DNA of 8,704 nucleotides from a virus. Taxonomy: Duplodnaviria; Heunggongvirae; Uroviricota; Caudoviricetes. The translations under genes and the position numbers were made by a program. Shown here piece after piece: positions 1-8,704 of this stretch; within the stretch, counting starts at the first letter, position 1; each line of letters starts with the position of its first letter. Location: IMG/VR virus record IMGVR_UViG_2609460344_000011, positions 1 to 8,704 of that record; one strand, written 5' to 3'. The notes below the pieces were generated by a model that searched no databases, was not told the DNA's origin, and worked only from the letters and a program-made list of their open reading frames with translations.

Positions 1-86
1 TTTCCACCCCTGTACGTCTCACCACCTATATGGTCGTGGAAAGCCTTGGTGGTGAGTTCATTGAATTCAACATAGGGGCTGTCACC

Positions 87-632
87 ATGACTACTCTCCC
101 AACCCAATCTCACCCTGAAATCACGATTATCAATGGTCGCGTTGTCACCACATCTCTTGCAGTAGCTAATTACTTTACTAAACGGCATGAGCGGGTTTTA
201 GATAGAATTAGAAACCTCGAATGTTCCGCTGAATTTACTGAACACAATTTTGTGTTAAGTGAATACACCGACGCATCAGGCCGCAAACTCCCTTGTTACC
301 AAATCACCCGCGACGGTTTTGCGTTTCTTGCCATGGGCTTCACTGGTAAACGTGCTGCCCGGTTCAAAGAGGCATACATAAATGCCTTTAACCAGATGGA
401 AAAACTGCTTTCAAAGCCATCCACGCTGAGCGATGCCGCAGATAACGCCAGCGTGCTTTACTCCCACCTGTCGGTAATCCACAAGGTCTGGCTGCAGCAG
501 CTTTATCCCATGTTGGCAAAAGCCGAATCCCCGCTGGCTGTAAGTCTGTATGACCGCATCAACGACGCGGCGCTACTGGCCAGTCTCATAAATTTGTCGC
601 TGAACCCTTCAGAGGTAAGGGGGCGTAAATGA
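87..632 (+). CDS. Rha-family phage regulatory protein (antirepressor-like)
   Basis: ATG at 87 preceded by GGGG (75-78). The ORF is open from 30, but the N-terminus MTTLPTQSHPEITIINGRVVTTSLAVANYFTKRHERVLDRIRN fits the Rha-domain pattern recalled from memory. Stop TGA 630-632 overlaps the next ATG. Confidence 0.65.
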   Translation: MTTLPTQSHPEITIINGRVVTTSLAVANYFTKRHERVLDRIRNLECSAEFTEHNFVLSEYTDASGRKLPCYQITRDGFAFLAMGFTGKRAARFKEAYINAFNQMEKLLSKPSTLSDAADNASVLYSHLSVIHKVWLQQLYPMLAKAESPLAVSLYDRINDAALLASLINLSLNPSEVRGRK

Positions 633-853
633 TCCGGAATATTTTCAAACGGTTTACCAATCATACTTTCTGTTGTCCTCGTCCGGGTCAGTGGTACACC
701 ACGCCTGCAGGGCATGTTCTACGTGTTAGCCTGGTTGACCGTGAATGTCAGAAGGTGATTTGTGAACCGCTGGGCCGTAATTACCGCGTCAGTATGCCGC
801 TTATAGCCTTTTGCTCCGGAAAAAACATGAAGCATCTCGGAGGTGCTGCATGA
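629..853 (+). CDS. hypothetical small protein (74 aa), translationally coupled between Rha and the O-like gene
   Basis: ATG 629 overlaps the upstream stop (ATGA). Purine-rich SD-like GAGGTAAGGGGG at 611-622. Its stop TGA 851-853 overlaps the next start at 850. No recognisable domain. Confidence 0.45.
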   Translation: MIRNIFKRFTNHTFCCPRPGQWYTTPAGHVLRVSLVDRECQKVICEPLGRNYRVSMPLIAFCSGKNMKHLGGAA

Positions 854-1668
854 GTATGGAGTTGATGGTTAAAGCGATGAAAATTCGAGTGGGAAATCCA
901 TTGCGAAAACTGGTTCTGATTAAGCTGGCTGATAATGCCAGCGATCAGGGTGAGTGCTGGCCCAGCTATCAGCATATCGCTGATCAGTGCGAGATTAGCA
1001 AACGTTCTGTGATGAATCATATTGCGGCCCTCTGTGAGTCCGGGCTGGTAAAAAAAGTCACCCGGAAAGGTGAAAAAGGTAACTCAAGTAATATCTATCT
1101 CCTTCATCTGGATGGTGCAGGAGATTCACTAGGGGGTAGTGCAAATAATTCACTATCTGGTGCAGCAAATTCACCAGGTAGTGCAGGAGTTGCACCAGGG
1201 GGTAGTGCAGGAGATTCACCCAGAACCAGTCACTCTTTTGAACCAGTCAAAGAACCAGTCAATGAACCAATAGCTGTTGGTGAATCTGCTGATGAGTCTG
1301 TGCGAGTTCGTTCAAACCGACCGGAATACTCTCCGGAGTTTGAGCAGGCATGGCTGGCATACCCCAAACGTGCTGGTGGCAATTCAAAATCTGCAGCCTT
1401 CAAAGCCTGGAAAGCCCGTTTGAATGAGGGGGTAAACCCCGAAACCATGCTGGAAGGTGTGAAACGCTACGCGGGCTGGGTATCTGCGATGGGTAACAGC
1501 GGCACACAATTTGTGAAACAGGCTGTCACGTTCTTTGGTCCGGATCGTCATTTCGAAGAATCCTGGGAAGTTCCTGCGGTATCTGCAGCCAGACGCGAGG
1601 ACCCGTACTTCAAAGCCAGTTACGACAACGTGGACTACAGCCAGATCCCGGAAGGATTCAGGGGGTGA
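850..1668 (+). CDS. lambdoid replication initiator O-like protein (N-terminal HTH domain, Gly/Ser/Ala linker, C-terminal domain)
   Basis: ATG 850 with GGAGG at 838-842. N-terminal segment LRKLVLIKLADNASDQGECWPSYQHIADQCEISKRSVMNHIAALCESGLV matches the helix-turn-helix typical of phage O-type replication protein N-termini. A low-complexity linker follows, encoded by iteron-like DNA repeats. Confidence 0.65.
   Translation: MSMELMVKAMKIRVGNPLRKLVLIKLADNASDQGECWPSYQHIADQCEISKRSVMNHIAALCESGLVKKVTRKGEKGNSSNIYLLHLDGAGDSLGGSANNSLSGAANSPGSAGVAPGGSAGDSPRTSHSFEPVKEPVNEPIAVGESADESVRVRSNRPEYSPEFEQAWLAYPKRAGGNSKSAAFKAWKARLNEGVNPETMLEGVKRYAGWVSAMGNSGTQFVKQAVTFFGPDRHFEESWEVPAVSAARREDPYFKASYDNVDYSQIPEGFRG
1111..1221. 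repeat. iteron-like direct repeats inside the O-like gene (candidate replication origin)
   Basis: GTGCAGGAGATTCAC occurs at 1115-1129 and 1205-1219. GGGGGTAGTGCA occurs at 1132-1143 and 1198-1209. ATTCAC recurs at 1124, 1148, 1169 and 1214, giving a roughly 21-24 bp period. Further degenerate copies (GGTAGTGCAGGAG at 1177) lie between. Confidence 0.4.
1240..1271. repeat. short tandem repeat GAACCAGTCAA x2 plus a partial copy, encoding EPVKEPVNEP
   Basis: GAACCAGTCAA at 1240-1250 and 1252-1262, then GAACCAA at 1265-1271, immediately 3' of the iteron-like block. Confidence 0.4.
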
Positions 1669-1670
1669 TC

Positions 1671-2159
1671 ATGAGTCTTTTGAATGAAGTTCAGAAATTC
1701 ATTGAAGCCCATCCGGGGTGTACTTCCGGAGACATTGCGGATGCTTTTGCAGGTTACTCACGGCAGCGCGTTCTGCAGTCAGCAAGCAAGTTACGTCAGA
1801 GTGGGCGTGTGGCTCACCGTTGTGAAGGAGATACACGCAGACATTTCCCGCGCCTGACTGAGAGAGCACAGGAGCCGGAACCACAACCAGTTCGTGAAAC
1901 CAGACCTGTGCGCAATTTCTGTGTCGGCACTAACGACCCGCAGGTGATTTTGTGCCTGACTCGCCAGGCGGAAGAACTGGAGTCCAGGGGCTTATTCCGT
2001 CGAGCTGCAACGGTGTGGATGGAGGCATTCCGTGAAAGCCACTCCCAGCCAGAACGAAACAATTTTCTGGCGCATCGTGAGCGGTGCTTACGGAAAAGCA
2101 GCAAGCGCGCTGCATCGGGTGAAGAGTGGTATCTGTCAGGGAATTACGTGGGGGCTTAA
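1671..2159 (+). CDS. PerC-like transcriptional regulator domain protein with N-terminal winged-helix-like region
   Basis: ATG 1671 with AGGGGG at 1659-1664; the upstream stop TGA 1666-1668 lies just before it. C-terminal segment ESRGLFRRAATVWMEAFRESHSQPERNNFLAHRERCLRK fits the recalled PerC/Pch signature (GLxRRAAxxW ... RRxxC). The N-terminal half looks like a small wHTH. Confidence 0.5.
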   Translation: MSLLNEVQKFIEAHPGCTSGDIADAFAGYSRQRVLQSASKLRQSGRVAHRCEGDTRRHFPRLTERAQEPEPQPVRETRPVRNFCVGTNDPQVILCLTRQAEELESRGLFRRAATVWMEAFRESHSQPERNNFLAHRERCLRKSSKRAASGEEWYLSGNYVGA

Positions 2160-2812
2160 TGAGTAATAAATATTGCCAGGCGCTGGTGGAGCTGCGGAAC
2201 AAACCAGCCCATGAACTGAAGGAAGTGGGCGATCAGTGGCGCACGCCGGACAACATTTTCTGGGGAATTAACACCCTGTTTGGCCCGTTTGTTCTGGATC
2301 TGTTCACTGATGGTGATAACGCCAAATGTGCCGCTTATTACACTGCGGAAGACAACGCGCTGGCGCATGACTGGTCTGAACGTCTTGCGGAGCTTAAAGG
2401 TGCTGCCTTTGGTAATCCCCCGTACAGCCGCGCCAGTCAGCATGAGGGGCAATACATCACCGGCATGCGTTACATCATGAAACATGCCAGTGCCATGCGT
2501 GATAAAGGCGGGCGCTATGTTTTCCTGATCAAAGCTGCCACCAGCGAAGTGTGGTGGCCGGAAGATGCAGATCATATTGCTTTTATTCGCGGGCGTATTG
2601 GTTTTGAACTGCCTGCCTGGTTTATCCCGAAAGACGAAAAGCAGGTGCCAACAGGTGCTTTCTTCGCTGGTGCTATTGCTGTTTTCGACAAGACCTGGAA
2701 GGGACCGGCAATCAGCTACATAGGGCGCGATGAACTTGAGGCATGTGGTGAGGCGTTTCTGGCGCAGGTTCGCCAGCAGGCGGAAAAACTGGTCAGGGAG
2801 ATGGCGGCATGA
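2159..2812 (+). CDS. phage Dam-family N6-adenine DNA methyltransferase
   Basis: ATG 2159 overlaps the upstream stop TAA 2157-2159, with a G-run at 2150-2154. Contains the GNPPY catalytic-type motif (N/DPPY class) and overall resemblance to phage N-6-adenine methyltransferases. Confidence 0.75.
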   Translation: MSNKYCQALVELRNKPAHELKEVGDQWRTPDNIFWGINTLFGPFVLDLFTDGDNAKCAAYYTAEDNALAHDWSERLAELKGAAFGNPPYSRASQHEGQYITGMRYIMKHASAMRDKGGRYVFLIKAATSEVWWPEDADHIAFIRGRIGFELPAWFIPKDEKQVPTGAFFAGAIAVFDKTWKGPAISYIGRDELEACGEAFLAQVRQQAEKLVREMAA

Positions 2813-3135
2813 CGACATTAACTCAATGCCAGCAGCAGGTGCTGGATATGCTGATTTCTTATCAGAAAGAACGTGGCTTCCCGCCAACCAATCAGGAGGT
2901 GGCAACCATGCTGGGATACCGTTCGGTGAATGCAGCGGTGGAGCATCTTCGCGCACTGGAGAAAAAAGGTGTCATCACGATAAAGCGTGGCGTGGCCCGG
3001 GGTATCACTCTTCATACCGCGGTGAAGGACGACGACAGCGAGGCGGTCGGGATTATCCGCGCCCTGCTTGCCGGTGAGGCAAACGCCAGGCTGCGTGCAG
3101 CCCACTGGTTACATGAGAGGGGCCTGAAAGTATGA
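2809..3135 (+). CDS. LexA N-terminal DNA-binding domain homologue lacking the S24 peptidase domain
   Basis: ATG 2809 overlaps the upstream stop (ATGA). Residues 1-68 align without gaps to the E. coli LexA N-terminal domain as recalled: LTxxQQxVxDxI ... GxPPTxxExAxxLGxRSxNAAxEHLxALxxKGVIxI ... RGIxL. The protein ends at 108 aa with no catalytic Ser/Lys domain. Confidence 0.75.
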   Translation: MTTLTQCQQQVLDMLISYQKERGFPPTNQEVATMLGYRSVNAAVEHLRALEKKGVITIKRGVARGITLHTAVKDDDSEAVGIIRALLAGEANARLRAAHWLHERGLKV

Positions 3136-3527
3136 AGCTAATACTGCCTTTTCCGCCCAGCGTGAACACGTACTGGCGACACCCCAACAAAGGGGCGTTT
3201 GCTGGTAAGAGCCTGATAAGCGCGGCGGGGCGAAAATTCCAGAGCGCGGCGTGTGCAGCAATAGTTGAGCAGTTACGTCGTCTGCCGAAACCAACGTCGG
3301 CACCTGCTTCAGTGGAGATCGTGTTGTTTCCTCCGGATAACCGGATCCGCGATCTGGACAACTATAACAAGGCGCTGTTTGACGCCCTGACCCACGCGGG
3401 TGTGTGGGAAGACGACAGTCAGGTGAAAAGAATGCTGGTGGAGTGGGGACCGGTTATCCCGGAGGGGAAGGTCGAGATCACTATCAGTAAGTACGAAAAA
3501 GCGAGTTGCAAATTAGCAACTCGGTAA
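3132..3527 (+). CDS. rusA: RusA-family Holliday junction resolvase (crossover junction endodeoxyribonuclease)
   Basis: ATG 3132 overlaps the upstream stop (ATGA), with GAGAGGGG upstream. N-terminal LILPFPPSVNTYWR and the acidic core DLDNYNKALFDALTHAGVWEDDSQV match RusA family signatures. Confidence 0.85.
   Translation: MKLILPFPPSVNTYWRHPNKGAFAGKSLISAAGRKFQSAACAAIVEQLRRLPKPTSAPASVEIVLFPPDNRIRDLDNYNKALFDALTHAGVWEDDSQVKRMLVEWGPVIPEGKVEITISKYEKASCKLATR
3502..3523. repeat. perfect 8-bp inverted repeat CGAGTTGC-N6-GCAACTCG at the 3' end of rusA
   Basis: CGAGTTGC (3502-3509) and GCAACTCG (3516-3523) are exact reverse complements. No U-tract follows, so it is more likely an operator or RNA stem than an intrinsic terminator. 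Confidence 0.35.
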
Positions 3528-3572
3528 CGGAATTGAGCAACACCCTAAATTTGGGTATTACCTCGTTAAAGA

Positions 3573-3592
3573 TACTGTATTTATGAACAGTG
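3573..3592. promoter_or_regulatory. LexA (SOS) box, consensus CTGT-N8-ACAG
   Basis: TACTGTATTTATGAACAGTG: CTGT at 3575-3578, an AT-rich 8-nt spacer, ACAG at 3587-3590. Candidate sigma70 elements TTGATA (3598-3603)-N17-TAAGTT (3621-3626) lie immediately downstream, before the KilA-N gene start at 3690. Confidence 0.7.
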
Positions 3593-3689
3593 TATCCTTG
3601 ATAACTATTAAAAATCGCAGTAAGTTCATCCTGCATCAACGAAAAGGGAGTGCAGTCCCGCTCGTGGATAAAAATTTGTGGAGAAACCA

Positions 3690-4505
3690 ATGAATCAGTT
3701 GCTTGTAATTGATGGCGTTTCTGTGCGTCAGTACTTCGAATCTAACTACTGTCTTAACGACCTTCAGAAAGCTGCTCTTCTTGCCGCTGGTGAGAATCGC
3801 TCCTCCCGTTCGCTGGAAGTTCACGAGTTTATGCGTCGTCCTGAAACGAAGGCTCTTGTGGAATTATTGGAAGAAGAAACTACGGGAGATTCCCGTAGTA
3901 TTCCTGTCATCACCATTCAGGGGCGCAATGGTGGGACGTATGTCTGTAAAGAGCTGGTCTATGCATATGCAATGTGGATCAGCCCGGCATTCAGCTTAAA
4001 AGTGATACGTACTTTTGATGCGCTTCATAATTCATCACCAGAAGAAACCACATCCGACAAAATTAAATCCGGGGTCATTCTGCTTGAATCAGCAGCAAAG
4101 ACTCTAAATCTGTCAAACTCCTCGAAACTTGGTGCATACCAGAAATTATCAAAGGTAGCTGGTCTTCCTGAACTTATGCCGATCTATGCCATTGATGCAC
4201 CTGCTGATGCGCCAGATGGTTCAAGCCGCCCTACGCTGTCGCTGAGTGCACTGCTGAAGCAGTATGGTATCCGCCTGACGGCTAATCAGGCATATCACCA
4301 GATGGCGAAGCTGGGGATCGTTGAACAACGCGAACGATACAGCCGTACCGCGATTAACAACATCAAAAAATTCTGGTCGCTGACCGCGAAAGGCTGCATG
4401 TTCGGCAAGAACATCACCAGTCCTGCAAATCCGCGCGAGACGCAGCCGCATTTCTTCGAATCCCGATTTCCTGAGCTGTTAAAGCTGCTCGATACCGTTC
4501 ATTGA
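3690..4505 (+). CDS. KilA-N domain protein, probable SOS-controlled antirepressor-like protein
   Basis: ATG 3690 with GGAG at 3680-3683. The N-terminal 110 aa (YCLNDLQKAALL ... IQGRNGGTYVCKELVYAYAMWISPAFSLKVIRTFDAL) fit the KilA-N domain pattern. Preceded by the LexA box. Confidence 0.7.
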   Translation: MNQLLVIDGVSVRQYFESNYCLNDLQKAALLAAGENRSSRSLEVHEFMRRPETKALVELLEEETTGDSRSIPVITIQGRNGGTYVCKELVYAYAMWISPAFSLKVIRTFDALHNSSPEETTSDKIKSGVILLESAAKTLNLSNSSKLGAYQKLSKVAGLPELMPIYAIDAPADAPDGSSRPTLSLSALLKQYGIRLTANQAYHQMAKLGIVEQRERYSRTAINNIKKFWSLTAKGCMFGKNITSPANPRETQPHFFESRFPELLKLLDTVH

Positions 4506-4506
4506 G

Positions 4507-5502
4507 GTGACTGTGAGAGCACTACTGACCCCTGAAATTGCCCCGCGTATGGGGATCGTATTGTTCAGGCCAGGTTCAGAGCTGATGCCCCTGTTTATGC
4601 AGGGGCGTGTCCTGCTGGAGCCTGAGCCGGAGCGTTATTCATCTTTCGCCAGTGGTGCCGTTCCGGCGGCATCACAACCGCTGGCGGATGATCCTGCCGT
4701 TCGGGCCGTGTTCCGCCATGAGGCAGTGATCCGTCGTGCTGGTGGCGTGGAATGTCTTGAAAGCTGGTTACTTCGTGAAAAAGGCTGCCAGTGGCCTCAT
4801 TCCGGATGGCACAGCGAGAACATGACCACAATGCGACACGCTCCGGGCGCAATCCGTCTGTGCTGGCACTGCGATAACCAGCTGCGCGATCAGTTCACGG
4901 AACGGCTGGAATCAATGGCAACGGATAACTGTGCCCGCTGGGTGTTGTCTGTTGTGCGTCGGGATCTCGGTTTTGATGACAGTCACGTTGTGACAATGCC
5001 GGAACTGTGCTGGTGGCTGATTCGTAATGACCTGGCGGATGCCTTACCGGAAAGTGCAGCCCGTAAGGCACTGAGATTACCGAAGCCTGTTGTGCCGTCT
5101 GTCACCCGGGAAAGTGACCTTGTGCCTTCGGTTCCTGCCACCAGCATCATCCAGGATAAAGCGAAAAAGGTGCTGGCGCTGAAAGTGGATCCGGAGTCGC
5201 CGGAGTCTTTTATGTTACGCCCCAAACGTCGCCGCTGGGTTAATGAAAAGTACACGCGCTGGGTTAAGACGCAGCCGTGTGCATGTTGTGGAAAGCCTGC
5301 TGATGATCCCCACCACCTGATAGGCCACGGTCAGGGGGGAATGGGTACAAAAGCGCATGACCTCTTCGTGCTGCCTTTGTGCAGAAAGCATCACGACGAG
5401 CTGCATGCGGATACCGTGGCATTTGAAGAGAAGTATGGCTCCCAGCTGGAGCTGATATTTCGTTTTATCGATCGTGCGCTGGCAATAGGCGTGCTGGCCT
5501 GA
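4507..5502 (+). CDS. DUF968-family protein with C-terminal HNH-like Cys/His motif
   Basis: C-terminal CACCGKPADDPHHLIGHGQGGMGTKAHDLFVLPLCRKHHDELH resembles the DUF968 family found next to Q in E. coli prophages. The start is uncertain: GTG 4507, GTG 4513 or ATG 4549, none with a strong SD. Confidence 0.6.
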   Translation: MTVRALLTPEIAPRMGIVLFRPGSELMPLFMQGRVLLEPEPERYSSFASGAVPAASQPLADDPAVRAVFRHEAVIRRAGGVECLESWLLREKGCQWPHSGWHSENMTTMRHAPGAIRLCWHCDNQLRDQFTERLESMATDNCARWVLSVVRRDLGFDDSHVVTMPELCWWLIRNDLADALPESAARKALRLPKPVVPSVTRESDLVPSVPATSIIQDKAKKVLALKVDPESPESFMLRPKRRRWVNEKYTRWVKTQPCACCGKPADDPHHLIGHGQGGMGTKAHDLFVLPLCRKHHDELHADTVAFEEKYGSQLELIFRFIDRALAIGVLA

Positions 5503-5519
5503 TTTTGTGGAGAAAGTTG

Positions 5520-5891
5520 ATGCGTGATATTCAAATGGTTCTTGAACGTTGGGGGGCATGGGTGGCAAATAATCACGAGGATGTGGAATGGTCATCTGTT
5601 GCTGCAGGTTTTAAGGGATTAATTCCTTCGAAAGTAAAATCCCGCCCGCAATGTAGCGATGACGATGGCCTGATCATTAGCTCTGCGATGACAGTTCTTA
5701 AGAAAAAGGAACCGTATCAATACGAATTACTGGAAATGTATTATGTGTATGGGGTTACATTACGGGTGTTGGGGGTAAAACTGGGGATATCACTTAATCA
5801 GGTTGTTATCAGACTGCAGAAAGCTGAAGGGTTTATTGACGGTTGTCTGGCAATGTTGGGGGTATCTTTAGAAATTGATTGTTACATATAG
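5520..5891 (+). CDS. Q-like late-gene antiterminator (small, about 123 aa, quuD-type)
   Basis: ATG 5520 with GGAGA at 5509-5513. The size, the position after rusA/DUF968 and before the tRNA cluster, and the N-terminal MRDIQMVLERWGAW match my recollection of small Q antiterminators of E. coli prophages. Family assignment is from memory, not a search. Confidence 0.55.
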   Translation: MRDIQMVLERWGAWVANNHEDVEWSSVAAGFKGLIPSKVKSRPQCSDDDGLIISSAMTVLKKKEPYQYELLEMYYVYGVTLRVLGVKLGISLNQVVIRLQKAEGFIDGCLAMLGVSLEIDCYI

Positions 5892-5930
5892 TAATAAATT
5901 CAATCAAAGTAAATAATCATATTTTATTAT

Positions 5931-5963
5931 AACCTCCTGATGATACCTGTTCATTGGGAGGTT
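5931..5963 (+). promoter_or_regulatory. inverted repeat AACCTCC-N19-GGAGGTT that can sequester the Shine-Dalgarno of the downstream gene
   Basis: AACCTCC (5931-5937) is the exact reverse complement of GGAGGTT (5957-5963). The right arm contains the SD (GGGAGG 5956-5961) of the ATG at 5967. Candidate -10 hexamers TATTAT/TATAAC at 5925-5933. Confidence 0.35.
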
Positions 5964-5966
5964 ATT

Positions 5967-6584
5967 ATGGATAAAAATGTAGAGCATGTATTAGTTGATG
6001 CAATTGAAAATAAGCAATCTTTAACAGTCGTTTACTTAGGAGGGAGCCAGCCCGGAACATTAAGGAATATTTCTCCGATTAGTATAAATGGGGATAAATT
6101 GCGGGCAAGATGCCATAGTTCTGGAGCAGTAAAGGTTTTCAATCTTGGGAAAATACAGTTACCCAGTGACTCCTGCGCGGTATCTATGCACTATGGAGAT
6201 TTAGAAGTTAAAGCTTATGAGACGATGCAGAGCGTAAATGACAACTTTCATGCCCTTTATCCTGAAGGACGATGGGGTGTTGATTTTAATGAGCATCGCT
6301 TTGCTTTATTTGATTTTTTTAAAAACGGGAAACGAAAAAAAACGGCATTTATGGCAATTGAGTTCAGGGAAAGAGATGAAGAGAAAATAATAACAGGTGT
6401 AACAATTGATATTGGTATATCTGGAACAGTGATTTCTGAGAAGTCCCGAATCCCAAAAAGACGACCATGGGTAGTGGTTGGTCCCGAACACGGAGAATAC
6501 AGTACTTATTCAACTTTGGACAAGGCTGCTACAGCGTTTTTTGAGAGGCTTTCGTTGATAGCATCCGGCCTGGAAGATAATTGA
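5967..6584 (+). CDS. hypothetical protein (205 aa), AT-rich accessory gene of unknown function
   Basis: ATG 5967 with a perfect GGGAGG SD at 5956-5961; an alternative ATG at 5940 has no SD. No family recognised. Markedly AT-rich relative to the upstream genes (by eye). Hand count: 11 of 12 Arg codons are AGA/AGG/CGA/CGG and 6 of 14 Ile codons are ATA. Confidence 0.6.
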   Translation: MDKNVEHVLVDAIENKQSLTVVYLGGSQPGTLRNISPISINGDKLRARCHSSGAVKVFNLGKIQLPSDSCAVSMHYGDLEVKAYETMQSVNDNFHALYPEGRWGVDFNEHRFALFDFFKNGKRKKTAFMAIEFRERDEEKIITGVTIDIGISGTVISEKSRIPKRRPWVVVGPEHGEYSTYSTLDKAATAFFERLSLIASGLEDN

Positions 6585-6716
6585 TTTTATGTTTGGTATT
6601 CAGAGTTCGCCGTGCTTAAGAAAGTCAAGATTCTAAAAATACTGAATGAGCTACTTGTGTTATAACAAAAATGCTATTAGTGTGTTAAGAGTGGTTACTT
6701 CGCCACACAACTTAAC

Positions 6717-6738
6717 CCCGCCACTGAGCGGGTTTTTT
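6717..6738 (+). terminator. intrinsic terminator
   Basis: Stem CCCGC (6717-6721) / GCGGG (6728-6732), loop CACTGA, followed by T6 (6733-6738). Confidence 0.6.
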
Positions 6739-6788
6739 GTACCTGTAAACTTGGTGCAGTACAGTAAACACGCTGGTGGTCGTGAATA

Positions 6789-6815
6789 CTGGCTTTTTAT
6801 CTTGCTGGCTTTTTA
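6789..6815. repeat. 11-bp perfect direct repeat CTGGCTTTTTA x2 (candidate regulator-binding site)
   Basis: CTGGCTTTTTA at 6789-6799 and 6805-6815, a 16-bp centre-to-centre spacing, about 50-75 bp upstream of the ATG at 6863. Confidence 0.35.
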
Positions 6816-6862
6816 GACAAGAGTTATTGGTATGTCACGTTAACCGGAAAGGGTAAAAAGAC

Positions 6863-7060
6863 ATGCTGAAACAGCAGGATATGACAGAAACCGCCAGAGT
6901 TGTGTTTGATGAATTAAGCGTTACCGAACCGGCGACAGTCGGGGAGATTGCGCAGAATACTTACCTTTCACGCGAACGCTGCCAGTTAATACTGACCCAG
7001 CTTGTTATGGCGGGTCTGGCAGACTATCAGTGCGGTTGTTACAGACGCCTTCAGTCCTGA
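6863..7060 (+). CDS. hypothetical small protein (65 aa), possible winged-helix (PapI/FaeA-like) DNA-binding protein
   Basis: ATG 6863 with a weak purine-rich stretch GGAAAGGG upstream. A helix-turn-helix-like segment ATVGEIAQNTYLSRERCQLILTQLVMAGL. Bracketed by intrinsic terminators. Assignment is tentative. Confidence 0.4.
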   Translation: MLKQQDMTETARVVFDELSVTEPATVGEIAQNTYLSRERCQLILTQLVMAGLADYQCGCYRRLQS

Positions 7061-7073
7061 AGGCTTTTTATTT
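7047..7073 (+). terminator. intrinsic terminator overlapping the stop codon of the 65-aa ORF
   Basis: Stem GCCTTCA (7047-7053) / TGAAGGC (7058-7064), loop GTCC, followed by TTTTTATTT (7065-7073). Confidence 0.55.
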
Positions 7074-7194
7074 GTGGTGAATGGGCGGCTGGTGGGGGGG
7101 CGACACCTGTCAGTCCTTTGCTTATGTGTTGATGATAATTTACCTTTTGGGGCTATAATTGAGCTAACCAATTGCTAATGAAAGTAAAATTATA

Positions 7195-7908
7195 ATGGCT
7201 GTTGTCTGTTCAGTTATCATGGTTTGCTCCCCAATTAATATTTTTCTTGAAAAGGATACGTTGTCACTTAAGCCAGGCTCAGTTGTTCTGGCCACCAAAT
7301 GCATCAGGGAGCTTTTCCTTATGCATTATGGCAAAGTTAAAATTGTCGATATAAGCGAATCCGTCGTAAGTCAATATCTGGAAAGTCAGCATAAGCTGAC
7401 GAGGACTCGTCTGACTGACATTCCGCTTTACCTGTTGCTGGAACCCAACAATCCTGCGTTGGCTGCGGCTTTAATTACCAGCCAGGGATTTTCCGGAGAG
7501 GCCACGGATATGTTTCTTATGATGGCCTGCCTGTCTCTGTTTGAAACAGATGAACGGATGTCATTGTTTTTAAGTGGATGTTTATCCAGCATAAGTGCCA
7601 AAGTCAGGGCGATAATTCAGACAGATATATCAGCAAGCTGGACGCTTGGTGCGATTGCTCTACAGTTGCATATGAGTGAGAGTTTGTTAAAGACAAAACT
7701 GAAAAATGAAGGGGGCATGTTCAGTCGCTTGTTGCTGGAAGAGCGGATGCGTGTTGCTGTAAATATGTTATGTTCCCGGCATGGATATGGACAGGCTATA
7801 GCAGAAAAATGCGGTTATTCAAGCAGGTCCTACTTTATTTCTGTATTTCACCGCTATTATGGCTTCCCGCCAGACAGATATGTATCCAGGCAAGGGCTTG
7901 ATTATTGA
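7195..7908 (+). CDS. AraC-family transcriptional regulator (AppY/GadX/YdeO/Rns-like)
   Basis: C-terminal AraC-type HTH (WTLGAIALQLHMSESLLKTKLKNEGGMFSRLLLEERMRVAVNMLCSRHGYGQAIAEKCGYSSRSYFISVFHRYYGFPP). N-terminus MAVVCSVIMVC resembles the AppY-like subgroup as recalled. AT-rich, with 5 AGG, 1 AGA and 5 ATA codons by hand count. No clear SD; an alternative start is ATG 7219. Confidence 0.7.
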   Translation: MAVVCSVIMVCSPINIFLEKDTLSLKPGSVVLATKCIRELFLMHYGKVKIVDISESVVSQYLESQHKLTRTRLTDIPLYLLLEPNNPALAAALITSQGFSGEATDMFLMMACLSLFETDERMSLFLSGCLSSISAKVRAIIQTDISASWTLGAIALQLHMSESLLKTKLKNEGGMFSRLLLEERMRVAVNMLCSRHGYGQAIAEKCGYSSRSYFISVFHRYYGFPPDRYVSRQGLDY

Positions 7909-7936
7909 TTTTCATCTGATTATTATTTTTTGGCTC

Positions 7937-8012
7937 GGCCCTTTAGCTCAGTGGTGAGAGCGAGCGACTCATAATCGCCAGGTCGCTGGTTCAAATCCAG
8001 CAAGGGCCACCA
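7937..8012 (+). tRNA. tRNA with anticodon CAU, most likely tRNA-Ile2 (lysidine, reads AUA); generic annotation would be tRNA-Met
   Basis: Hand-folded cloverleaf: acceptor GGCCCTT/AAGGGCC, D-arm GCTC/GAGC, anticodon loop CTCATAA, T-arm GCTGG/CCAGC with TTCAAAT loop, encoded CCA. Close to E. coli ileX as recalled. Confidence 0.8.
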
Positions 8013-8019
8013 TCACATA

Positions 8020-8096
8020 CCGCCATTAGCTCATCAGGAAAGAGCGCCAGCCTTCGAAGCTGGCTGCGCGGGGTTCAAGTCCCCGATGGCGGTCCA
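8020..8096 (+). tRNA. tRNA-Arg, anticodon UCG (reads CGA/CGG)
   Basis: Acceptor CCGCCAT/ATGGCGG, D-arm GCTC/GAGC, anticodon stem CCAGC/GCTGG with loop CTTCGAA, T-arm CGGGG/CCCCG with TTCAAGT loop, encoded CCA. The C1-G72 first pair is unusual but the fold is complete. Confidence 0.75.
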
Positions 8097-8109
8097 TTAT
8101 CTGCATCAT

Positions 8110-8186
8110 GCGTTGTTAGCTCAGCCGGACAGAGCAATTGCCTTCTAAGCAATCGGTCACTGGTTCGAATCCAGTACAACGCGCCA
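8110..8186 (+). tRNA. tRNA-Arg, anticodon UCU (reads AGA/AGG), argU-like
   Basis: Acceptor GCGTTGT/ACAACGC, D-arm GCTC/GAGC, anticodon stem ATTGC/GCAAT with loop CTTCTAA, T-arm ACTGG/CCAGT with TTCGAAT loop, encoded CCA. Confidence 0.8.
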
Positions 8187-8200
8187 CACTTATTTTCCCT

Positions 8201-8227
8201 GGCTCGCTTTTGCGGGCCTTTTTTTTT
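8201..8227 (+). terminator. intrinsic terminator downstream of the tRNA cluster
   Basis: Stem GGCTCGC (8201-8207) / GCGGGCC (8212-8218) with one G-U pair, loop TTTT, followed by T9 (8219-8227). Confidence 0.65.
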
Positions 8228-8439
8228 AAATGTCTCACAATTCAGGCGGTTGACTGTTGTCTGGTTTGCGGGGAGTTTGTTAAAAGAAACTGGCATGGTG
8301 AATCCCCCTGTGCGGAGGGGCAATCAGCAACTGGTGTTTTGTCACCGACCCTTATCCTTTCTGTGCGGGTTCAGGTGCTGATACTGAACTCACCGGGAGG
8401 CACCCGGCACCATGCAATGGCACATAGCGCCACTCTCCA

Positions 8440-8463
8440 GCCCCTCTCCGGAGGGGCTTTCTT
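8440..8463 (+). terminator. GC-rich hairpin with weak T-rich tail (possible attenuator or terminator)
   Basis: Stem GCCCCTC (8440-8446) / GAGGGGC (8451-8457), loop TCCG, followed by TTTCTT. Confidence 0.35.
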
Positions 8464-8469
8464 ATGGAC

Positions 8470-8497
8470 AAAAAAATCCCGCGCTGGGAGACGCGGG
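8470..8497 (-). terminator. candidate minus-strand intrinsic terminator
   Basis: Stem CCCGCG (8478-8483) / CGCGGG (8492-8497) with an 8-nt loop, preceded on the + strand by A7 (8470-8476). On the minus strand this reads hairpin then U7. Confidence 0.35.
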
Positions 8498-8691
8498 CGG
8501 CAAGGAATAAACAACAAAACGTGAAGTAATATTTCAGTTGGCGAATAATATCCGACAGTAATCACTCTGCGCAATAGCGCGGCCTTTTTCGTATTGCGGG
8601 CTGTTGTCTATCTTCTGCCATTATCCTGTAACTTCCGGACTTCAGCCCGCTCCTCATTTTACTCACAATATTATCCAGGCCGGGAGGATTC

Positions 8692-8704
8692 ATGGCATTT
8701 AAAC
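8692..8704 (+). CDS. 5' end of an unidentified gene running out of the window (begins MAFK)
   Basis: ATG 8692 preceded by GGGAGG at 8681-8686 with 5-nt spacing. Only 4 codons are visible. Confidence 0.3.

Follow-up and report, generated by a model that had tools for sequence, protein, structure and literature searches.

A prophage gene encoding a LexA DNA-binding domain joined to a conserved helical hairpin: a possible LexA-box-binding regulator of Enterobacterales lambdoid prophages

A phage-encoded LexA homologue consisting of the DNA-binding domain only has been described in the Bacillus tectivirus GIL01, whose gp6 protein binds a palindrome of its own, GaCACAnnTGTGaC, and activates a late promoter (Fornelos et al. 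2018, PMC6182141). Bacterial LexA possesses, in addition to its winged helix-turn-helix, an S24 protease and dimerisation domain with the catalytic residues Ser119 and Lys156, together with the Ala84-Gly85 pair. On its own the DNA-binding domain of LexA leaves sulA-lacZ unrepressed, and fusion to a partner that dimerises confers repression (PMC10761746). The present analysis concerns a protein of 108 amino acids, here termed LexA-NTD, encoded in a stretch of 8,704 nucleotides (positions 1 to 8,704 of IMG/VR virus record IMGVR_UViG_2609460344_000011, Caudoviricetes) referred to throughout as the window. The protein retains the DNA-reading head of LexA, lacks the protease domain and possesses in its place a conserved helical hairpin; it may act as a regulator that binds LexA boxes and is insensitive to RecA.

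Residues 1-65 matched the Pfam family LexA_DNA_bind (PF01726) from end to end (65 of 65 positions, E 2.9e-19), and the E. coli LexA structures 1lea, 1jhh and 3jso were matched without gaps over residues 2-70 at E values of approximately 1e-15 using phmmer against the PDB. Identity to residues 1-70 of E. coli LexA is 35 of 70 ungapped positions (50%). An AlphaFold2 (AF2) monomer model of the complete protein gave a mean predicted local distance difference test score (pLDDT) of 85, with the winged helix domain at approximately 90. Helices were placed at residues 6-22, 28-35 and 40-52, the last of these being the recognition helix, and wing strands at 56-58 and 66-68. Foldseek superposed this model on the LexA-DNA structure 3jso with a root mean square deviation of 0.9 Å over 68 columns at 50% identity. 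A first-pass annotation, made from the letters of the window alone, had claimed a gap-free alignment to the LexA N-terminal domain that included the recognition helix and had proposed superposition of a predicted structure on LexA; both hold, and the string R38-S39-x-N41-A42-A43-x-E45-H46-L47-x-A49-L50 is present exactly.

The DNA-contacting residues of LexA helix 3 are reported to be S39, N41, A42, E44 and E45 (PMC3091678). Four of the five are retained in the window protein, E44 being replaced by V, and H46 and L47 of the recognition helix are kept as well. Conservation across the family was assessed from 125 sequences, comprising the window protein and 124 full-length cluster representatives of 101-166 amino acids, mostly 104-111, aligned over both the domain and the tail. 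S39 was invariant (100%), N41 was present in 98% and A42 in 90%, while position 45 was occupied by E or D in 87%. The simplest prediction from these columns, for the subfamily to which the window protein belongs, is recognition of a LexA-type half-site.

No match to Peptidase_S24 was obtained with Pfam for the 108-residue protein, in keeping with the earlier proposal of a phage or prophage LexA homologue that is cut down to its DNA-binding domain (the PF01726 match) and ends without a catalytic Ser/Lys domain. The stop codon of the gene overlaps the start of rusA (ATGA, 3132-3135); since the rusA start lies inside the LexA-NTD stop codon, nothing is missing downstream and there is no room for a remnant of the protease. 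With TIGR00498 the protein scored 70.7 bits, below the curated cut-off of 110.95, and only model positions 1-91 of 203 were covered. Judged by sequence, the protein is not a LexA, since it fails three of the four testable defining features, namely the protease domain, the cleavage site and the TIGR00498 cut-off. With neither an S24 domain nor a conserved Ala-Gly pair, self-cleavage could not be triggered by RecA*, and the protein should be blind to RecA*.

The C-terminal tail is a module in its own right. It begins with a linker, residues 71-75, that has pLDDT values below 50 and varies in length across the family, the indels falling here in the alignments. Beyond the linker AF2 predicted a hairpin with a pLDDT of approximately 90, composed of a helix at 75-87, a turn at 88-92 and a second helix at 93-103. 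A separate prediction for a Klebsiella member (P0301; 43% identical, 130 amino acids) gave the same hairpin after the same wing, in addition to a disordered N-terminal extension of 24 residues. In the alignment A97 was present in 100% of sequences, L101 in 99% and A93 in 93%, and positions 82, 83, 86, 87 and 100 were always hydrophobic. The first helix presents a broad hydrophobic surface made up of A79, V80, I82, I83, A85, L86, L87 and A88; a hydrophobic-moment analysis of the hairpin gave no clear signal. No Pfam family corresponds to the hairpin, a search to E 10 returning noise only (NIL, CCDC24 and PPR), and no structural match was found with Foldseek in the PDB or BFVD, where the winged-helix part alone was matched. 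A reading of the tail as a HEAT/PBS-like repeat or another known domain was rejected, since Pfam gave only noise and the Foldseek hits were confined to the winged helix. The tail is a family-specific, conserved domain under clear purifying selection.

This differs from the first-pass annotation, in which the tail was read as a stub resembling the LexA hinge and the Ala-Gly cleavage-site strand. The Smith-Waterman score of the tail, VGIIRALLAGEAN, against LexA residues 66-120 was 25, compared with 18.9 ± 3.8 for shuffled sequences, of which 8.4% scored at least as high, and BLASTP of the tail against the LexA hinge returned no alignment; the resemblance is thus at the level of chance. A88-G89 was modelled at the end of the first hairpin helix and not in a strand-loop. 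A88 is kept in 62% and G89 in 72% of the family, whereas the core hairpin residues A97 and L101 reach 99-100%. Close relatives have AK, AN or VG at these two positions and distant ones ER, TR, SG, DD, AC, AE or AD. A vestigial hinge and Ala-Gly strand might nevertheless survive as a substrate or pseudo-substrate for cleavage in trans by S24 domains of LexA, CI or UmuD type or by RecA*, leaving the protein responsive to SOS. HMMER extends the LexA alignment weakly through the residues AGE (88-90), MAFFT aligns A88-G89 with the AAG of full-length LexA-like proteins, and AG is the majority state in the clade of E. coli and Salmonella. Against a helix end predicted with a pLDDT near 90, similarity to the hinge that does not exceed chance and the replacement of the pair in relatives, such a role is highly improbable. 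What the earlier annotation missed was that the tail is a conserved domain and that the DNA-binding domain of LexA needs a dimerising partner.

The gene matched PHROG 362 over its full length (1-108 / 1-106, E 4e-59), and its cluster, which carries the name 'LexA family transcriptional regulator', comprises 2527 members. Of 5426 complete E. coli genomes, 2233 (41%) possess the gene, some in as many as four copies, and its neighbours are nearly always a phage N6-adenine methyltransferase gene on one side and rusA on the other. A further 51 phage records contain it, including mEp460, SfIV and Stx2a- and Stx2c-converting phages, and SfV was added by protein search. Members are 101-135 amino acids in size, apart from a few longer mis-called fusions, and occur in E. 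coli, Shigella, Salmonella, Citrobacter, Hafnia, Cronobacter, Atlantibacter, Klebsiella and Enterobacter at identities down to 41-43%. The recurring gene order is O(HTH_36), PerC, DNA methyltransferase, LexA-NTD, RusA, an antirepressor-like gene, DUF968 and Q, and it was recovered in Salmonella, Cronobacter, Atlantibacter, Citrobacter and unassigned contigs at identities down to 43%. The antirepressor-like slot is occupied by KilA-N, Rha+ANT or ORF6N+ANT, depending on the prophage.

These observations bear on the proposition that the open reading frame (ORF) arose by chance or by decay of a full-length repressor gene of LexA or CI type; a frameshifted remnant had been named at the outset as the finding that would overturn the first interpretation. 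The protein is half the length of LexA and falls below the TIGR00498 cut-off, as would a remnant. The uniform length, the conservation of residues over the full length, tail included, at identities down to 41-43%, the thousands of near-identical copies and the conserved gene order with overlapping start and stop codons already contradict it, and it retains next to no probability. The ORF is an intact gene of a conserved family of Enterobacterales lambdoid prophages.

The gene has been annotated already, and the family of stand-alone LexA_DNA_bind proteins of phages is uncharacterised. Many other phages encode LexA-like proteins of 70-150 amino acids that consist of the DNA-binding domain only. 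Three proteins of 160-220 amino acids (P0144, P0164 and P0173) have two tandem LexA_DNA_bind domains, an arrangement that looks like a LexA reading head made into a 'single-chain dimer'. Names given to homologues are inconsistent and include 'SOS-response repressor and protease LexA', 'LexA repressor', 'Rrf2 family transcriptional regulator' and 'transcriptional repressor'; the adjacent Dam methyltransferase is misnamed 'phosphoadenosine phosphosulfate reductase' in RefSeq phage records. PADLOC returned generic winged-helix noise only.

The perfect LexA box reported downstream in the first-pass annotation is present, starting 440 bp after the end of the ORF. Its core, CTGTATTTATGAACAG, is the only perfect CTGT-N8-ACAG sequence in the window and is unchanged in four variant sequences of the intergenic region. 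With its flanks, TACTGTATTTATGAACAGTG, the site matches 16 of 20 positions of TACTGTATATATATACAGTA, which we take to be the LexA box consensus. Six distinct AT-rich CTGT-N8-ACAG sites occur in 17 related loci (195 kb, partly redundant), against 0-1 sites for every control in the same 195 kb, these being 11 palindromes of matched composition and the other spacings between N4 and N12. On these counts of sequence motifs, LexA boxes are real features of the related prophages. The prophage of E. coli TOE17 that resembles the source of the window has two strong boxes, one inside the cI-like gene and the other being the window box. The window copy of LexA-NTD, lying between the dam and rusA genes, has no LexA box upstream.

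Further boxes were noted in these loci. The cI-like S24 repressor gene contains a near-consensus box, TACTGTTTTTACATACAGTA, within its coding sequence, approximately 210 nt from the start, at 13413-13428 of locus L019 (the TOE17 prophage) and 757-772 of L005 (mEp460). Downstream of Q in mEp460 and in a Salmonella prophage, an N6_N4 DNA methyltransferase gene has another box, TACTGTAAAAATAAACAGTG, at its extreme 5' end (L005 9808-9823 and L004 10303-10318, respectively), and a degenerate copy of the box is present in Stx2a_WGPS2 (L006 10283). A candidate box, CTGTAGGAGGCGACAG, over the start of the Salmonella gene of this family (L003/L004 5986-6001) was set aside as a probable chance occurrence, its spacer being GC-rich and containing a Shine-Dalgarno sequence.

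Members of 130-135 amino acids form a subfamily with a distinct context. The gene sits in operons that begin with LexA boxes. In Klebsiella the order is LexA box TACTGTTTATTTATACAGTA - dinI - small ORF - LexA-NTD - orf67 - DUF968, and in Enterobacter it is LexA box ACCTGTACATTCATACAGTA - small ORF - LexA-NTD - orf67 - RusA - DUF968 - Q. A metagenomic prophage has a terminator followed by two tandem near-consensus boxes, a phage recA, a small ORF, LexA-NTD, orf66 and DUF968. The recA of this last prophage (369 amino acids; L022 342-1513), behind a Rho-independent terminator and the tandem boxes, heads the operon that holds the LexA-NTD member of 133 amino acids. The small ORF (77-96 amino acids) always lies directly upstream of the subfamily gene (L007 5670-5960, L013 5713-5961 and L022 1552-1785); its versions are homologous between contexts (57% identity) and have no Pfam match. 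The layout resembles the LexA-controlled operon of the Gifsy prophages, dinI - antirepressor - irsA (Lemire et al. 2011, PMC3121763), in that a terminator or LexA box is followed by dinI or recA and then by a small ORF, a further gene and orf66. The small ORF takes the place of the Gifsy antirepressor, and orf66/67 is homologous to STM1021.1n of Gifsy-2. No BLAST alignment was obtained between the small ORF and GftA, and identity in a MAFFT alignment was 14%. The two arrangements differ in that the further gene in Gifsy is irsA, which was considered as a family member and rejected because it encodes a DUF1367 protein unrelated to LexA, and in that the window copy lies in an early operon between the Dam methylase gene and rusA. 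In the prophages of this subfamily SOS would induce the protein, which would in turn switch off its own operon if LexA boxes are its target.

The reading that is tentatively preferred, at a little under even chances, is that LexA-NTD is a RecA-insensitive regulator that dimerises through its hairpin, binds LexA boxes and re-occupies them once host LexA has been cleaved, and so may hold the DNA-damage genes repressed. The earlier suggestions that it binds CTGT-N8-ACAG boxes and reshapes SOS-dependent induction are accordingly plausible. Given that the LexA DNA-binding domain needs a dimeriser, the conserved hairpin is the only candidate, and it would take over the dimerising role of the missing C-terminal domain. 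The dimer would read CTGT-N8-ACAG boxes through the recognition helix, which keeps S39, N41, A42 and E45. Production of the protein is envisaged only after prophage induction or phage infection, as host LexA is being cleaved. The start of the gene overlaps the stop of the Dam-type methyltransferase gene (ATGA, 2809-2812), and no sigma-70-like promoter was found in a consensus scan of window positions 2000-4000; these overlapping start and stop codons, together with the lack of a promoter-like site in that interval, argue for co-transcription with the early genes. Targets might include the box 440 bp downstream, before the KilA-N gene, other boxes of the prophage and host SOS promoters, as well as the LexA-controlled antirepressor operons of co-resident prophages. 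Phage-encoded damping of the SOS response has precedents in GIL01 gp7 and Listeria AriS, and the ANT/KilAC domain of AriS is of the kind encoded two genes downstream in several related prophages.

Several points weigh against this proposal. The only characterised phage LexA homologue reduced to the DNA-binding domain is gp6, which has evolved an operator of its own, depends on K38 and activates transcription (PMC6182141), and a search of the literature found no study of the 108-residue protein and no publication on it. Position 44 is never acidic in the family, P40 is V in the window protein at a position that varies, and L or T stands in place of E45 in the Klebsiella and metagenomic subfamilies; these changes indicate that specificity may differ from that of LexA in at least part of the family. 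The box-bearing intergenic region was present in only approximately 8% of the E. coli genomes that carry the gene (176-186 of 2233; found in 186 and colinear with the LexA-NTD and rusA pair in 176), so the local box is not an obligate partner. A clear promoter around the 3575-3590 box was not found in the consensus scan of 2000-4000, hand-picked hexamers being weak. All of the boxes observed could be accounted for by host LexA alone.

The main rival is a phage-specific regulator with a private operator, to which the LexA-derived domain would have drifted. Like gp6, it would control, positively or negatively, a single promoter of the phage (perhaps a late, moron or antirepressor promoter) and leave the host SOS regulon untouched, the hairpin serving to dimerise or to contact RNA polymerase. 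The binding of GaCACAnnTGTGaC and activation of P3 by gp6 provide the model, and the non-acidic position 44, variable position 40, loss of E45 in some subfamilies and location of most gene copies away from a LexA box all agree with it. It is opposed by the retention of four of the five LexA contact residues, strongly conserved in the window subfamily, where gp6 relies on K38. Moreover, no other conserved palindrome stands out in the window, the gp6 core CACAnnTGTG is absent from it, and canonical LexA boxes accompany dinI or recA in the contexts of the 130-135-residue subfamily. A private operator is considered unlikely, if a serious contender.

Alternatively, the protein might act as a competitor, either through weak occupancy of LexA half-sites or boxes or through a hairpin that holds host LexA or RecA, and so tune SOS induction by raising or delaying it rather than bring repression back. 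The hairpin has no known fold partner, and RecA or the SOS response is the target of neighbours such as dinI, recA and ANT/KilA-type proteins; both points would suit such a role. LexA dimerises via a C-terminal domain that is absent here, however, so heterodimers are not expected, and the sequence resembles no protein known to bind RecA or LexA. The idea is built entirely on inference and appears improbable.

An extended form of the preferred reading, that of a LexA-box binder acting after LexA cleavage, may also be contemplated. LexA-NTD, present in nearly half of E. coli genomes and in Stx2-converting phages, would then be a natural, RecA-proof mimic of LexA with a two-helix dimeriser of its own. 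It would re-repress the whole SOS regulon during lytic growth and the LexA-controlled antirepressor operons of rival prophages, a shut-off of SOS imposed by the phage that would serve as a weapon between prophages and, in Klebsiella and Enterobacter, form a negative feedback loop on its own SOS-box operon. This version is doubtful, though a genuine possibility.

Comparison with the described systems helps to place the protein. It shares with host LexA the winged helix-turn-helix fold and half of the residues of that domain, and LexA boxes occur in the same prophages; it differs in its conserved hairpin in place of the protease and dimerisation domain, in its prophage-borne gene within an early operon and in position 44. 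The resemblance to gp6 lies in both being LexA homologues of temperate phages reduced to the DNA-binding domain, gp6 being expressed from an early operon following SOS induction and working together with host LexA and LexA boxes. Unlike the window protein, with its additional conserved hairpin of 30 residues, gp6 ends after the wing, which has an extension of 14 residues. The recognition helix of gp6 has also diverged, whereas the window protein keeps the LexA contact residues and is of Gram-negative, lambdoid origin. Engineered two-hybrid fusions (PMC10761746) likewise join the LexA DNA-binding domain to a heterologous dimeriser without the cleavage machinery, and repress sulA-lacZ; they are artificial, while the C-terminal module of the window protein, the putative dimeriser, is a natural one. 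On the best reading of these comparisons the protein is closest in kind to gp6 and would work most like an engineered fusion that joins LexA's DNA-binding domain to a dimeriser. The conserved hairpin, the retention of the LexA reading head without the protease, the very wide distribution and the recurrent placement in or next to modules controlled by LexA boxes look to be new.

Judged by the neighbouring genes (Table 1), LexA-NTD lies in the replication/nin region of a lambdoid prophage. Positions 2809-3760 are 100% identical to the prophage adjoining mlrA in E. coli TOE17, phage PhiR49_1 is 98% identical over the stretch compared (2600-3800) and SfIV matches 2803-3800 at 98%. The ATG at 3690 is the annotated start of the KilA-N gene in both PhiR49_1 and TOE17.

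Table 1. Positions of the LexA-NTD gene, its protein segments, the LexA box and neighbouring genes in the window
Feature	Position	Strand	Basis or remark
Rha gene	30-632
O-like HTH_36 replication protein gene	811-1668
PerC-like gene	1665-2159
Dam-family N6-adenine DNA methyltransferase gene	2126..2812	+	Pfam PF05869, E 1.1e-45; conserved neighbour
LexA-NTD gene, 108 amino acids	2809..3135	+	ATG-to-TGA ORF; PHROG 362; PGAP 'LexA family transcriptional regulator'
LexA-type winged helix-turn-helix, residues 1-70	2809..3018	+	AF2 model, Foldseek, Pfam
Start of acidic, low-confidence linker, residues 71-74 (AVKD)	3019..3030	+	AF2 pLDDT, alignments
Two-helix hairpin, residues 75-103, proposed dimerisation element	3031..3117	+	AF2, column conservation
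RusA Holliday-junction resolvase gene	3132..3527	+	Pfam PF05866, E 6.4e-15; conserved neighbour
LexA (SOS) box with flanks, TACTGTATTTATGAACAGTG	3573..3592		Core CTGTATTTATGAACAG at 3575-3590; 162-nt intergenic region upstream of KilA-N gene
KilA-N domain gene, antirepressor-like slot of conserved module	3690..4505	+	Pfam PF04383, E 1.3e-15
DUF968/HNH gene	4507-5502
Q antiterminator gene	5505-5891

Other features of the window were also recorded. Iteron-like tandem repeats (1135-1220 and 1240-1269; periods of 21-24 and 12) lie inside the O-like gene and are probably the replication origin of the prophage. A palindrome with a perfect stem of 11+11 nt, CGAGTTGCAAA/TTAGCAACTCG, overlaps the 3' end of rusA at 3502-3523 and was called terminator-like by the scanner on the minus strand only. 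Just downstream of Q, an ORF of 214 amino acids (5940-6584) matches PHROG 8498 and has sub-threshold similarity to the WYL domain. An AraC-family regulator (7195-7908) situated between Q and a tRNA cluster resembles YdeO and GadX, with scores far below their cut-offs. Three tRNA genes (anticodon CAT, Arg-TCG and Arg-TCT) followed by a match to the small RNA family STnc100, full length at 143 bits, occupy 7937-8186 and 8264-8469; the CAT tRNA is assigned to Met by ARAGORN and to Ile in the annotation of the TOE17 genome.

Were the operator to prove private, LexA-NTD would be an ordinary phage regulator with a misleading database name. If it binds SOS boxes and is proof against cleavage, the host response to DNA damage would be overridden from within by induced lambdoid prophages, with effects on mutagenesis, SOS-induced toxins and colicins, the timing of Shiga-toxin phages and which of several co-resident prophages wins after induction triggered by antibiotics. 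The protein would then be a Gram-negative counterpart to gp6, perhaps of the opposite sense, and its hairpin a new minimal dimerisation module for a winged-helix domain. Since 41% of complete E. coli genomes carry the gene and prophages of Salmonella, Klebsiella, Citrobacter, Cronobacter and Enterobacter have related forms, the reach of even a modest effect would be wide.

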